A DNA stretch of 64,000 bases. Source: an uncultured Chloroflexia bacterium (GTDB lineage Bacteria; Chloroflexota; Dehalococcoidia; DSTF01; JALHUB01). Below, one piece after another: positions 2,182 to 30,731 of the stretch. The stretch's first letter is position 1. The number at the start of each line of letters is the position of its first letter. Location of the stretch: assembly GCA_963726245.1 (NCBI GenBank), contig CAVSBT010000019.1, positions 85,855-149,854 on the forward strand. Direction: 5' to 3'. A program made the position numbers and the translations under genes. The notes under the pieces were generated by a model. That model had not been told where the DNA came from. It did not search any database and worked only from the letters and a program-made list of their open reading frames with translations.

Positions 2182-3359
2182 TCACGGCTGGGCCAGGAAC
2201 TCCTCCTGGATGCGCCGGCGCAGCTCCGGGTCCGTGAGAACGTCGATAGCGGTCATGGCCATGGCTTTGGCGGCGTCCAGGAGGCCTCGCTGTCCGTCTT
2301 CGGAGGCGGCGCAGGCGGCGAACTCGCGGCTGTGGATGCCTACCTCGGGCGGCGCCACGGCGATCGTGGGATGGATGGCGGGCACCAGGGCGCTGACGTT
2401 GCCCATGTCCGTGCTGCCCATGTGCCGGCTGGGCTGATCGTGCGTCTGGCGGCCGACGGCCGCCAGGTTCGCCTTGTGGGCTTCGGCCAGGGCGCTGTTG
2501 CTACGCATGGCGGCGAACTGGTTCTCCGACCAGCGGTACTCCAGGCGGGCGCCGCTTGCCCGTCGCGCCGGCCTCGAAGCAGGCGATGACCTTCGACTTC
2601 AACTCGTCCAGGTAGGCGTCGTCCTCCGCCCGAACCAGGAAGCTGGCCGCCGAGTGGTTCGGCACGACGTTCGCCGCCTGGCCGCCGTCGGTGATCACGC
2701 CGTGGATGCGGGCGCTGTCGCGGATGTGCTGGCGCAGGGCGCCGATGGCGTTGTAGGCGAGGATGAGGGCGTCAAGGGCGTTGACGCCGGTCTCCGGCCG
2801 GGCGGCGGCGTGGGCCTCCCTCCCGAAGTACTCGACCTCCAGGGAGACGCAGGCCAGTGCCCGCGAGTGGACGGCGTTACGGGAGCCGGGATGGGTGAGC
2901 ATAGCGACATCCAGGCCGTCGAAGGCGCCCTGGCGGGCCATGATGACCTTGCCGCCCACGATCTCCTCGGCCGGCGTGCCGATGACAACGAGGGAGCCGC
3001 CCGTCGAGTCGAGGGCTGTTCGCGCCGCCAAGGCGGCGGCCGCGGCGCTGACGCCGATGAGGTTGTGGCCGCAGGCGTGGCCAACGCCGGGCAGGGCGTC
3101 GTACTCGGCCAGGAAGGCGACGCGGGGCCCGCCCTGGCCCGCGGTGGCCCGGAAGGCGGTGGGCAGGCCGCAGATCCCCCTCTCGACCTGGAATCCGGCC
3201 TTTCTCCAGGAGTTCGCAGAGCCAGGCGCTGGCCTTGTGCTCCTGGAGGCCCGCCTCTGGGTTGTCGTGGATGCGGCGGCTCAGGTCGATGAGCTCTTGC
3301 CGGTGGACCTCGACCTCGGCGACGGCGCGGGCTTTGAGACGTTCCTTGTCAATGGCCAT
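2182..3359 (-). CDS. M20 family metallopeptidase/amidohydrolase (frameshifted)
   Basis: MAIDKERL...IHDNPE, AEYDAL..GHACGHNL, GTPAEE, GREAHAAARPE, GSTDMGNVS across several frames. Confidence 0.88.
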
Positions 3360-3556
3360 AGAGTGGCCCCCCGCGCGAGCCGGACGGCGGCCGCGGCATC
3401 GAGGCACCGCATTGTAGGGATGCCCCCGCCCGTCCGTCAAGCGGACTATGTGGCTAATCTGGCATCCGGCCTGCCAACGTCGGGGCGCAGCAGGCTGCGC
3501 CCCTAGAAGGTCAGACGAATAGGGAGCCGACGGGGTTCGACGGGCTCAGCGCCCTG

Positions 3557-5557: not shown

Positions 5558-6806
5558 CTACTCGACGCGGATGCCCGGCGCCGGGAAGGACCGGCAGAGC
5601 TCGCGCACCTCGCCGCTGATGCGCTCCAGGACCGCCTCGTCCTCCACGTTGGACACCGCCTCCTCCATCCAGGCGGCGACCTGTCGCATCTCCGCCTCAC
5701 CCATGCCGCGTGAGGTGACGGACGGTGTGCCGATGCGCACGCCGCTGGGGCTGAAGGGCCGGCGCGGGTCGTAGGGGATGGTGTTGTAGTTGGTGACGAT
5801 GCCGGCGCGGTCCAGCGCCTTCGCCGCCTTCTTGGCGATCACCTCCTTGTTCGTCAGGTCGATGAGGATGAGGTGATTGTCGGTGCCGCCGGAGATGAGG
5901 GAGAAGCCGCGCTCCCGGAGCTCCGCCGCCAGCACCTTGGCGTTGCGGACTATCTGCTGTCCGTACTCCCTGAACTCGGGCGTGGCCGCCTCCTTCAGCG
6001 CCACGCCGATGGCCGGCCGTAGTGTGGTTGTGAGGCCCTCCCTGGAGCGCCGGGAAGACGGCCCTATCGATCTTGGCCGCCAGGTCGGCGCGACAGAGGA
6101 TCATGGCGCCTCGAGGGCCCCGGAGCGTCTTGTGCGTGGTGGTGGTGATCACATCGGCGTACGGCGCGGGGTCCGGATGCGCCCCTGCCACCACGAGGCC
6201 TGCTATGTGGGCGATGTCCGCCAGGAAGTAGGCGTCCACCTCGTGGGCGATCTCGCCGAAGGCCTTGAAGTCGAACAGCCGGGGATACGCGGTGGCGCCG
6301 GCGACGATGATGCGGGGCCTCTCGCGTCGCGCCATGTCGCGCACGGCGTCGTAGTCGATGAGGTGGGTCTTGGGGTCCACCGTGTACTGAACGGAGCGGT
6401 AGAAGCGGGCGGAGAAGCTCACCTCCCAGCCGTGGGTGAGGTGCCCGCCGTGCGGCAGGCTGAGCCCCATGATCGTCTCGCCGGGCTCCAACAGGCCGTA
6501 GTAGACCGCCATGTTGGCCGGCGAGCCCGAGTAGGGCTGGACGTTGGCGTGATCCATGTGGAAGAGGGCCTGGGCCCGCTCCTTCACCAGCTCTTCCAGC
6601 CGGTCGATGTTGCGCTGCCCTTCGTAGTAGCGCTTTCCCGGGTAGCCCTCCGAGTACTTGTTGGTGAGGACGGAGCCCACAGCCTCCATTACCGCCGCCG
6701 AGGCGTAGTTCTCGGACGGGATGAGGCGCAGGGTCTCGAACTGGTACCTCTCCTCCTCCCGGATCAGGGAGTAAATCTCAGGATCGGTCTGCTGTAGCTC
6801 TAGCAT
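5558..6806 (-). CDS. glyA: Serine hydroxymethyltransferase (frameshift near 6015)
   Basis: [40 protein letters not shown] (PLP Lys), GGTDNHL; ATG at 6806 with GGAGG RBS. Confidence 0.96.
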
Positions 6807-6933
6807 GTTCGCCCTCCTCCGGATGCCGTTTTGCCCGGACGAATCCGCCCCGTCTGTGGGATGCCCGTTTGCCCGTCTGTCCGGCAAACACGCAAACAGG
6901 CAAACGGGCAGGTACGCCTGCCTGCCGCAGGCA

Positions 6934-6965
6934 GAAAAACAGCCACGTCACGGGCCGACGTGGCT
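6934..6965 (-). terminator. Intrinsic terminator in the glyA 5' leader (attenuator)
   Basis: Minus strand: AGCCACGTC-GGCCCGT-GACGTGGCT followed by GTTTTTC. Confidence 0.75.
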
Positions 6966-6993
6966 CAACGCAGGGCAAGACCGGCCGCCAGCC

Positions 6994-7050
6994 CTAGTCG
7001 TGACGCGGCCCGCGTCCGTCTCCCCTCGAAACTACAGTCCTGGAAGGCAT
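6994..7050 (-). CDS. Putative glyA leader peptide MPSRTVVSRGDGRGPRHD
   Basis: AAGGAG RBS then ATG at 7050, TAG at 6996-6994; lies between promoter and terminator. Confidence 0.55.
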   Translation of the reverse strand: MPSRTVVSRGDGRGPRHD

Positions 7051-7067
7051 CTTCTCCTTACGTGGGC

Positions 7068-7097
7068 AGTGTAGCGGAGCCCTCTCGCGGGTGTCAA
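7068..7097 (-). promoter_or_regulatory. Sigma70-type promoter for the glyA leader
   Basis: TTGACA-18 nt-TACACT on minus strand. Confidence 0.7.
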
Positions 7098-7116
7098 CGA
7101 CTGTGGGAATAGCTCG

Positions 7117-8509
7117 TTAGTCGCTGGCTGTTTCGTCCAGGCCCAACTGCTGGCGGTAGTCGGGCTCCACGGCCTGGACGGCGCCCATCTCCTGCATCTT
7201 CTCGAAGGGGAGCCGGAAGATCTCCCGCACCATGTCCTGAACCATCGCGAACGTCAGGCCCTCCGGCAGCTCCAGGATCGGCTCGCTGCCGGTGACGCCC
7301 TCCGCCTCGAGGGAGGCCAGCTCCTCGTCGGAAAGGCCGAGCATGCCCTGGAGCACCTCGCGGTTGTGCTGGCCCAGCACGGGCGCCGCCGAGCCCACGC
7401 GCGTCTCGAAGCGGTCGAACCTGGCGACGAGATGGCGGGGCACCGGCCGCCGGCCCAGGACGGGGTGATCCACCAGGTGGAAGTGCTGGCGCTCGCGGAA
7501 GTGCGGGTCCACGAGCAGGTCCTTGCCGGTTGAGCACCGGCGCCGCCTTGACGCCGGCGCGCTGGAGGAGGTGGAAGGCCTCGTAGTGGTCCTGTTCGCG
7601 GGTCCAGCCCTCGATGAGCGCGTCGAGGGTATCGTGGTTCTCGTGGCGCGCGAGGACATCGGCGAAGCGCTCGTCCTCGGTCCACTCAGGGTGGCCGGTG
7701 GCGCGGCAGAAGGCGGCCCACTCGTCGTCGTTCTCGATGGAGATGACGAGCCAGTCGTCGTCGCCGCGGCAGTGGTAGCAGCCCTGCGGCGCCGCCCACG
7801 AGCTGCGATTGCCCATGCGCTCGGGCAGCCGGCCGTTCATCTGGTAGTCCATGAGCGCGGCGCCCATGACGGCCATCGCCCCCTCCTGCTGTGAGAGGTC
7901 GATGAACTGCCCCCGACCCGTGCGCTGCCGGTAATGAAGGGCGGCTAGCACCGCTCCAGCGGCGAGGACGCCCGTCAGCGGGTCGGTTAAGGAGATGCCG
8001 CTGCGGATGGACGGCCCGCCCGGGTAGCCCGTGGCCGACGATATGCCGGAGGCGGACTCCAGCCCCATGCCGTAGGCGCTCCAGTCGCTGTAGGGCCCAG
8101 TTTGGCCGTAGCCGGACATGGAGAGCATGATGATGTCCGGCTTCAACTGCCGGACCGTCTCATACTCCAACTCGAAGGCCTTCATGACACGCGGCGTGAA
8201 GCTCTCCACCAGGACGTCGCTATCGGCGATGAGGCGGTGGAGGAGGCCGCGGCCCGGCTCGCTGGTCAGGTCCAGGGTGATGCTCCGCTTGCCGGCGTTG
8301 TGAACGGCGAAGTAGCAGGTCCGGTTCCAGGGCTGATCGGCGGAGTCGTTGTCGGTCATTATGAGGCCGCGGGCGATGTCGAGCCGCTGCCGCGCCTCTA
8401 TCTTGATGACATCGGCTCCGAGCTCGGAGAGGATGCGGGTGCACGTCGGCCCGGCGAAGACGTGGGAGAGGTCCAGCACCCGGACGCCGTCGAGGGGTAG
8501 CGCCGCCAT
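7117..8509 (-). CDS. Family III CoA-transferase (CaiB/BaiF), subunit with catalytic Asp (frameshift near 7525)
   Basis: VRVLDLSHVFAGP, NAGKRSITLDL, SGYGQTGPY, SGISLTD, APVLGQHN. Confidence 0.9.
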
Positions 8510-29684: not shown

Positions 29685-30669
29685 CTAGTCGTGCGCCGGC
29701 CGCGGAATGATGCGGTCGAGCCGCTCCCGGACCTGGATAGCCTGCTCCACCGTGCGGTCGAAGAGCTCCTTGACGGTGGGGATGTCATGGACGAGCCCCA
29801 CTGCCTGCCCCACACTGGCGAAGGTGTCTTCCACCTGCCCCTCCTCGAAGGCGGCGTTGGGGCTGCCCGGTGATGACAGGAATCAGCTCCTCGATGGTGG
29901 TGCCGCGGGCCTCCATCTCCAGGACCTTGTCGGTAAGGGCGTTCTTGGCCACCCGGATGGCGTTGCCTATGGAGCGCATGACATAGGCGGTGTCTGACTC
30001 CGTGGCCTTGACCAGGTACTCCTTCCAGGCGGGGTGGCCGTAGCACTCCTGGGTGGCCATGAAGCGGGTGCCCATGAGGACGGCGTCGGCGCCAAGGGCC
30101 AGGGCAGCCGCCAGGCCGCGGCCGTCGGCGAAGCCACCGCCGGCCACCACCGGGATGTTGACGGCGTCCACGCACAGAGGCACCAGGACCAGGCTGGTGA
30201 CCATGTCCAGCCCAGGGTGGCCGCCGCACTCGTAGCCGACGATGCAGACGGCGTCGCAGCCGAGCCGCTCGGCGGTGCGGGCGTAGCGCACGCCAGCCAC
30301 CTTGTGCATGATCTTGACCCCGCCCTCGTGGAGGGCCTGGACGATGCCCTCCGGGCTGCGGCCCGATGTCTCCACCACGGGGATCTTCTCCTCCACCGCT
30401 ATCTGGACCCACTCCTCGATGGGCTGGCGGCGGACGGCGGGGAAGAGGTTGATGTTGAGGCCGATGGGGCCGTCGGTCAGGTCGCGGGCCTTGCGGATCT
30501 CGGCCCGCAGGGCGTCCAGGTCCTCGCCGAAGGTGGCGCCGACCATGAAGCCGAGGCCGCCGGCGTTGGCCACGGCGGCCACCAGCTCCGCCCTCCCGAC
30601 CCAGAACATGCCGCCGCAGATGATGGGGTAGCGGATGCCGAACATCTCGGTGATACGGGTCTGGAACAC
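29685..30669 (-). CDS. Nitronate monooxygenase/FabK-like flavin oxidoreductase (frameshift near 29860)
   Basis: YPIICGGM, NAGGLG, GYECGGHPG, VAGGGFADGRG, MGTRF. Confidence 0.9.
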
Positions 30670-30731
30670 ATCAATCTCCTTTCCCTGTGCAGGGAGCGGT
30701 CAACGCCGATCGCTGGACAACATCCAAGGGG

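Follow-up and report, generated by a model that had tools for sequence, protein, structure and literature searches.

Control of glyA by premature termination tied to one-carbon or glycine status has been described elsewhere (PMC2864571, PMC12452182). The leader reported here resembles the ZMP/ZTP riboswitch (RF01750), the glycine riboswitch (RF00504), and the T-box (RF00230) in this premature-termination control of glyA, but those RNAs bind a ligand or a tRNA directly, whereas the present leader appears to use the ribosome. Biased control codons are given as a hallmark of the attenuator (PMC1183508, PMC2836559), and repeated complementary motifs common to the helices are described for classical attenuators (PMC1183508, PMC2836559, PMC1262725). 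Like trpL, hisL, leuL, thrL, and pheL of enterobacteria and the trp leader of Actinobacteria, the present leader combines a promoter, a biased upstream open reading frame (uORF), an antiterminator, a terminator, and a biosynthetic gene. Two control codons are found in trpL, as here. The leader differs from the classical attenuators in its amino acid and target (glycine and glyA), in its non-adjacent control codons, and in an antiterminator of two helices, one of which is formed by a copy of the terminator 5' arm inside the uORF that captures the 3' arm. It also differs in that a conserved protector helix was not found and in that most copies lack a Shine–Dalgarno (SD) site.

The sequence features of a classical attenuator (conserved uORF, biased Gly codons, terminator, and exclusive antiterminator) were all found at this locus, and its stall/stop behaviour was reproduced in silico only, with G025, G084, and G087 as exceptions. 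We consider it probable that the leader is a ribosome-mediated transcription attenuator that senses glycyl-tRNA and turns glyA on when it is short. It would work like the trp, his, and leu attenuators, with glycine, the glyA target, and the two-helix antiterminator among the differences. A sequence-only reading of this DNA had proposed a leader-peptide transcription attenuator of glyA, and comparison across relatives backs that proposal through the conservation of the uORF frame, the Gly codons, and GGA, the covariation of one antiterminator helix, and the exclusive link to glyA. A search of the full-text literature returned no leader-peptide attenuator for glycine or glyA; supplementary motif tables of RNA-discovery papers and surveys in subscription journals (Lopatovskaya 2010, Vitreschak 2004) could hold one.

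Three described uORF systems are closest in other respects. The leaderless short polycysteine ORFs of mycobacteria are attenuators that control translation of the downstream gene (bioRxiv 10.1101/834739, PMC9031893); the present leader shares with them a short ORF near the 5' end that reports amino-acid supply, but has two Gly codons and an intrinsic terminator instead of Cys runs and translation control. The whiB7 uORF senses alanine, and its stalling leads to antitermination under many stresses and controls a transcription factor (PMC10274678). There, as probably here, uORF stalling opens antitermination and uORF composition serves to sense a small amino acid, but whiB7 shows alanine enrichment in a variable uORF, whereas fixed GGA positions and one enzyme gene are found here. 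The cysS motif uORFC-8-2 of Rhodobacterales is a lineage-restricted predicted attenuator (PMC8632094). It is similar in having two conserved cognate codons and in coming from comparative genomics, and different in its tandem Cys codons and synthetase gene, compared with non-adjacent Gly codons and glyA.

All features of the leader lie on the minus strand of the window, which is the whole 64,000-nucleotide stretch of DNA analysed. A sigma-70-type promoter (7068..7097) was composed of a −35 box at 7097-7092, an 18-nt spacer, and a −10 box at 7073-7068, and its position predicts a transcription start near 7061. The range 6500-7600 contained one promoter-like site, where shuffles predict 0.1, and homologous leaders were preceded by a similar promoter layout. 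Because the upstream neighbour, a CoA-transferase, ends near 7117, the promoter belongs to the leader itself. A purine-rich SD-like site (7054..7059) lies only 3 nt ahead of the ATG of the leader uORF (6994..7050), which has 18 codons and a TAG stop. The candidate control codons, both GGA, are Gly10 (7021..7023) and Gly12 (7015..7017). Codons 14-17 contain copy A (7000..7010), which repeats the terminator 5' arm, and segment 2 (6986..6994) comprises the last base of the stop codon and the following 8 nt. A stop-codon hairpin AGGGC..GCCCT (6967..7000) was obtained by folding and recognised by eye in families f1 and f3; in folding, it conceals segment 2 and can coexist with the terminator. The predicted intrinsic terminator (6935..6965) has its stem at 6965-6941, followed by G and five T; two overlapping terminator-like sites were counted against 0.7 expected. 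The putatively regulated gene, glyA (5558..6806), has an SD site at 6813..6820, recognised from the sequence, and its ATG at 6806 is 129 nt past the T run. Its product is a serine hydroxymethyltransferase (SHMT), with a score for family NF000586 that exceeds the cut-off. The promoter, SD-like site, 18-codon uORF, hairpin, terminator, and glyA were thus found on the strand and at the places given in the sequence-only reading.

Some irregularities were observed around the locus. Relative to G001, one extra base near 6016 shifts the glyA frame and another near 7529 shifts the CoA-transferase frame, and an amidohydrolase-like gene (2182-3440) is likewise fragmented; these are probably assembly indels. 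Between the terminator and glyA, 6862-6911 makes up a long, imperfect hairpin that looks periodic at 8 nt. It was missing from the aligned relatives, and short repeats like it occur in multiple copies in other genomes of the order.

The Rfam scan of 6500-7600 gave six weak matches well under the gathering scores and none over the leader, so a known riboswitch, which the earlier reading wished to see excluded, was not matched there. Among 20 homologous loci, only a tRNA was matched. RF01750 matched neither the leader nor any of the 93 genomes of the order, RF00504 had none at the leader or the homologous loci, and RF00230 had none at the leader. Outside the order, RF01750 detected a ZMP/ZTP riboswitch upstream of glyA (L211:2323-2414, genome G216). 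Other contigs of the own genome showed four T-box matches (G000:C5, C12, C25, and C17), two of them above the cut-off; one is followed by a gene that we take to be acetolactate-synthase-like.

A DNA search with the promoter-to-terminator stretch showed matches in relatives of several families. A GlyA search of 93 genomes of this Dehalococcoidia order gave 71 matches, and the upstream DNA was read for 69, with G058 and G078 left out for insufficient upstream DNA. The terminator-motif rule selected 36 of these 69 regions, 35 of them with a uORF; in G006 the terminator was present and the uORF absent under the selection rule. A metagenome pattern of which glyA was not part gave 30 matches, 24 directly upstream of glyA on the same strand, and the remaining six, without glyA, look like chance. 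Removal of four duplicates left 56 distinct elements. The core consisted of 52 copies (32 genome-derived and 20 metagenomic), with G006 excluded and three divergent f5 copies kept separate. The metagenome pattern predetermined Gly12, the following codon, and copy A in its 20 copies; therefore, codon counts use the 32 genome-derived copies. The copies are kin, and all counts overstate the number of independent events.

The covariance model R1, built on 53 copies, gave a single match per genome, every time at glyA, in 35 of the 93 genomes; this is largely by construction, as 33 of them supplied the model. No second copy was found by R1 in the own genome, and G045 enters the counts solely as a non-match. 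Among 151 genomes of the class, searched with strict filters and 27 candidates scored per genome, R1 gave five matches, all inside the order, and nothing outside it. Four families of the order conserve the leader by R1, and a fifth has a variant form. R1 left 15 of the 17 other genomes of f1 and 13 of the 16 of f5 unmatched, and in many genomes of the order the leader has been lost or was never present. The leaders of G031 and G028 appear decayed. A pattern for the terminator alone gave 76 matches in genome contigs; six in Dehalococcoidia/Chloroflexi records represented the same five leaders already found by the DNA search, and the others were unrelated, by chance.

Chance alone could have placed a short ORF next to a terminator in GC-rich DNA, and the folding of 6930-7062, which was not more stable than shuffles (z −0.45), would agree with this, so stability by itself is no evidence. 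The genome has 238 consensus promoter-like sites, only five of which come with a short ORF and a terminator-like hairpin, and the leader is among these five. The comparison across the order already refutes such an explanation, since the leader is conserved in four families, varies in a fifth, and is exclusively linked to glyA; we regard chance as extremely improbable.

Several glyA regions of relatives showed other arrangements. In family f2, chiefly genus g9, 17 of 21 genomes lacked a glyA match to this query at E ≤ 1e-40, and several of these are >90% complete. Four class-level relatives (L224, L225, L228, and L231) have a different conserved promoter, leader, and terminator upstream of glyA; the two leaders scanned (L224 and L225) had no Rfam match. 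Outside the order, L214 and L219 showed a glyA promoter and a terminator opening with the same GCCACG arm, and the 17-codon ORF of L214 encodes Gly-x-Gly by GGC codons. These two are possibly distant relatives overlooked by R1.

The uORF frame was held firmly. An in-frame start and stop were present in 52/52 core copies; the other two frames gave starts in 0 and 2 copies and stops in 1 and 2. Counted were starts within the first 22 nt from which the frame remains open past both Gly codons, and stops at most 30 nt past the second Gly. The control frames hold the information, since it was the rule-chosen ORF that set the reference frame. In the 32 genome-derived copies the stop varied (TAG 21, TGA 7, and TAA 4) and the codon between the two Gly codons had eight forms. 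Gly stood at positions 10 and 12 in 32/32, as GGA in 28 and GGC in 4 at Gly10 and as GGA in all 32 at Gly12, in agreement with the Gly codons noted there earlier, and these two are the candidate control codons. Gly14, named alongside them, was Gly in just 9/32 and does not qualify. Serine sensing, which had been suggested from the Ser codons, was also rejected; Ser was absent from 19/52 rule-chosen uORFs, a few of these being rule-shortened.

GGA is a rare Gly codon in this genome: its long ORFs have 39037 Gly codons, and 3465 of them (8.9%) are GGA. It was found in 8/268 cases at the invariant Gly columns of glyA from 31 leader-bearing loci and at 3/27 of the other Gly codons of the uORFs. 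The tRNA-Gly genes in the genome number one with TCC, two with GCC, and two with CCC. Judged from these sequence comparisons, the uORF is under selection. Departures from the usual arrangement kept GGA as well: G022 and G087 have three tandem GGA, and G025 has two. Against the attenuator stand G037, which retains only a single GGA at the control site, the small number of control codons (two, and these not adjacent), and the codon after Gly12, which was CGC in 28/32 and for which a reason was not found.

Two other explanations for GGA were rejected. For a protector helix, pairing did not outdo shuffled sequence (better in 32/52 core copies and in 14/32 genome-derived copies), and a conserved partner for the Gly12 GGA was not found. 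The other, that GGA would report the wobble modification of tRNA-Gly(UCC), which depends on methylene-THF and glycine, is ruled out so far as mnmG is concerned, because mnmG was found in 0/93 genomes.

A nascent-peptide sensor of the TnaC or SpeFL type, in which Gly-x-Gly and the tail stall on a tunnel-bound small molecule or report translation stress, is quite unlikely on these data. In TnaC and SpeFL, conserved residues upstream of the stall site line the exit tunnel; here the codons ahead of the first Gly, whose residues would occupy the tunnel, varied freely and showed no conservation. The tail past the Gly codons was Arg/Pro-rich in most copies, and the Pro near the stop was retained in the three f5 copies without copy A, both of which speak for such a sensor. 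Against it, the tail is conserved at the nucleotide level, consistent with RNA pairing, the f2 form with another tail still keeps GGA, and a peptide sensor would have no need for GGA rather than GGC. This f2 leader (L108/G022 and L120/G087) is remodelled: its uORF is leaderless and 13 codons long, and it has a protector helix of the 1:2 kind and a terminator related to that of the other copies. Upstream of glyA in L107 (G086), just the 3' part of the leader was seen, at the contig end.

The outer six pairs of the terminator were present in 53/53 aligned copies, where the outer motif doubled as the selection rule, and three of its inner pairs showed compensatory changes. A conserved antiterminator that is mutually exclusive with it was observed as two helices. 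In helix 2:3, segment 2 (6994-6986) pairs with the inner 5' arm and loop of the terminator (6960-6952). As segment 2 was out of register between families in the alignment, this helix was tested through anchored duplexes. In the 32 genome-derived copies the energies were −14.0, −12.0, and −10.2 kcal/mol for cognate, non-cognate, and shuffled partners, respectively, and the cognate duplex was better than the non-cognate in 25/32 and than the shuffled in 30/32. Compensatory forms were GGCTG:CAGCC, GGCGG:CCGCC, GGGCG:CGCCC, GACGG:CCGTC, and GTACG:CGTAC.

In helix A:4, which belongs to the read-through fold, copy A (7010-7000) pairs with the terminator 3' arm (6951-6941). It was retained without clear two-sided change: 89% of the cells were paired, and eight A-to-G and three C-to-U changes kept G-U pairs, but two-sided change was not significant, with 73-274 of 500 shuffles scoring equally high. 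Something other than pairing could be what preserves copy A. Helices 2:3 and A:4 are nested and jointly occupy all of 6960-6941, and the minimum free energy fold (MFE) of the window with the ribosome on Gly10 or Gly12 contains the pairing of copy A with the 3' arm. A conserved protector helix 1:2 was not found, and a clear one was seen only in f2.

A different antiterminator had been read from the window alone, in which codons 13-16 (7014-7003) pair with 6961-6949, across the terminator 5' arm and loop. In the window this helix has a strong −21.6 kcal/mol and does form in the truncated transcript, but it is not conserved in relatives, where over 32 copies the cognate duplex gave −8.7 compared with −8.0 kcal/mol for shuffled and was better in 16/32. 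By folding, it may act locally in the window. The proposed comparison of glyA upstream regions therefore had a divided result, with the uORF, Gly10 and Gly12, and the covarying helix 2:3 kept, and the Ser codons and the codons 13-16 helix not.

RNAalifold on the MAFFT alignment gave the terminator only and no aptamer-like consensus; alignment A2 was used without G071 and G072, which have long insertions. This result, together with the lack of any matching Rfam family, counts against a terminator switched by a ligand or a protein, with the uORF incidental or setting the basal level only, and we judge such a switch very unlikely. Strong nucleotide conservation from Gly12 through copy A does favour it, as does the precedent of the Streptomyces ilvB and leuA leaders, which were attenuator-like yet failed the codon test, the ilvB leader being independent of its candidate control codons (PMC1262725). 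Here, the frame, with its in-frame start and three kinds of stop, is kept in 52/52, and synonymous GGC is present at the first Gly.

The response to the ribosome was computed by equilibrium folding, with an assumed ribosome edge at +12 nt, counted from the P-site codon's first base, up to which the RNA was masked. With the A site at Gly10, the next codon, Gly12, the next codon, and the stop, the terminator probability exceeded 0.5 in 4, 1, 9, 22, and 31 of the 32 genome-derived copies, respectively, and the window copy showed values of 0.01, 0.00, 0.17, 0.97, and 1.00. The switch from read-through to termination was therefore computed to lie at the second Gly codon with the +12 edge. With a +15 edge, the curve moved one codon earlier, so that the first Gly was the effective site and a stall at Gly12 terminated in 35/52. 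In these models, stalling near Gly codons 10 and 12 would open read-through and full translation would permit termination, both as had been expected from the sequence. Shuffling of copy A raised termination under a Gly10 stall from 6/52 to 37/52, compared with 9/52 for a control stretch. Likewise, shuffling of segment 2 raised termination under a second-Gly stall from 11/52 to 32/52, compared with 16/52 for the control.

The copies did not all behave alike. G022 switched across its second and third GGA and the following codon, and G087 did not switch in folding. Two leaders without copy A, G025 and G084, never switched at equilibrium; in their truncated transcripts, helix 2:3 lasted until the ribosome was close to the stop. 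In the truncated transcript of the window, the terminator 5' arm was occupied in every state, early by the codons 13-16 helix and by another helix with the ribosome at the stop, which does not support kinetic discrimination there.

Without a ribosome, the window copy (0.97) was among the 12/32 genome-derived copies that terminated, and 20/32 folded as read-through. The earlier idea that failed initiation frees the antiterminator was not borne out in silico for the window copy and, given the 20 copies, may apply in the family. These folds bear on an alternative that makes initiation the main input. Met-tRNA is formylated with one-carbon units from GlyA, and slow initiation on the leader under folate stress would lead to the read-through fold, with the Gly codons as a second input or for timing. 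The absence of a conserved protector helix from our findings fits this alternative, and so do the starts, which are weak or near the 5' end. An SD-like site was present in 16/55 copies, an SD-led minority to which the window copy belongs and whose starts include GTG, TTG, ATT, and ACG; the other 39/55, without SD, start 7-12 nt past the −10 box. The genome has fmt, and the ZTP riboswitch, which covers glyA elsewhere (PMC2864571) and also in G216, was the RNA found in 0/93 genomes of the order. The terminating copies point the other way, and the invariant GGA at the computed switch point would be left unexplained; initiation as the main input is, in our judgement, unlikely.

For the attenuator that senses glycyl-tRNA, we infer the following course of transcription, translation, stalling, and termination, with glycine as the signal. 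RNA polymerase would initiate near 7061, and a ribosome would follow and translate the uORF. With ample glycine, the ribosome would clear both GGA codons and cover copy A and then segment 2, so that the terminator could form and transcription end near 6935. When glycine is scarce, the ribosome would halt when its A site reaches Gly10 or Gly12, the GGA being read via tRNA-Gly(UCC), for which the genome has one gene. Segment 2 would then bind the inner 5' arm and loop of the terminator, copy A would take the 3' arm, and the polymerase would continue into glyA, whose product would make glycine from serine. A-site pauses at Gly codons upon lowered tRNA charging have been described (PMC6377232). 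Both serA and gcvP are in the genome, and the attenuator logic fits it because serA is present and SHMT can convert serine to glycine.

A tentative extension, to which we give a low probability, is a two-input ribosomal sensor of both SHMT products, in which stalls at GGA report glycine and slow initiation reports a lack of formyl-tetrahydrofolate through formyl-Met-tRNA. The weak or near-leaderless start would report the shortage of formyl-Met-tRNA, and the decoy copy of the terminator arm in the uORF would act as a one-codon ruler of ribosome position. Such a leader would do the jobs of a ZTP riboswitch and an amino-acid attenuator together, in an order whose genomes gave no ZTP riboswitch match.

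If the glycyl-tRNA attenuator is real, leader-peptide transcription attenuation would be extended to glycine as a sensed amino acid, and a new control route would be added for glyA, the gateway to one-carbon metabolism. Coupled transcription–translation control would extend to Chloroflexota, where regulation has been little tested. The leader would be a compact (~130 nt), genetically encoded glycyl-tRNA sensor, directly testable by reporter. It would also allow a clean test of selective-charging theory with Gly isoacceptors (GGA vs GGC) and a test of an antiterminator built on a terminator-arm decoy that is exposed with a precision of one codon.

A second leader was observed in the own genome. 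At G000:C31, about 30370-30698 on the minus strand, a promoter, a leaderless 33-codon uORF, and a terminator precede a gene that is presumably argC-like, judged from its N-terminus. Within six codons, the uORF encodes Arg five times, three times as CGA. With the A site on the second Arg, the terminator disappeared from the MFE, which did not happen at the other positions tried, so in folding this is a possible arginine attenuator. An Arg-cluster leader upstream of an argC-like gene suggests that the lineage uses such attenuators.
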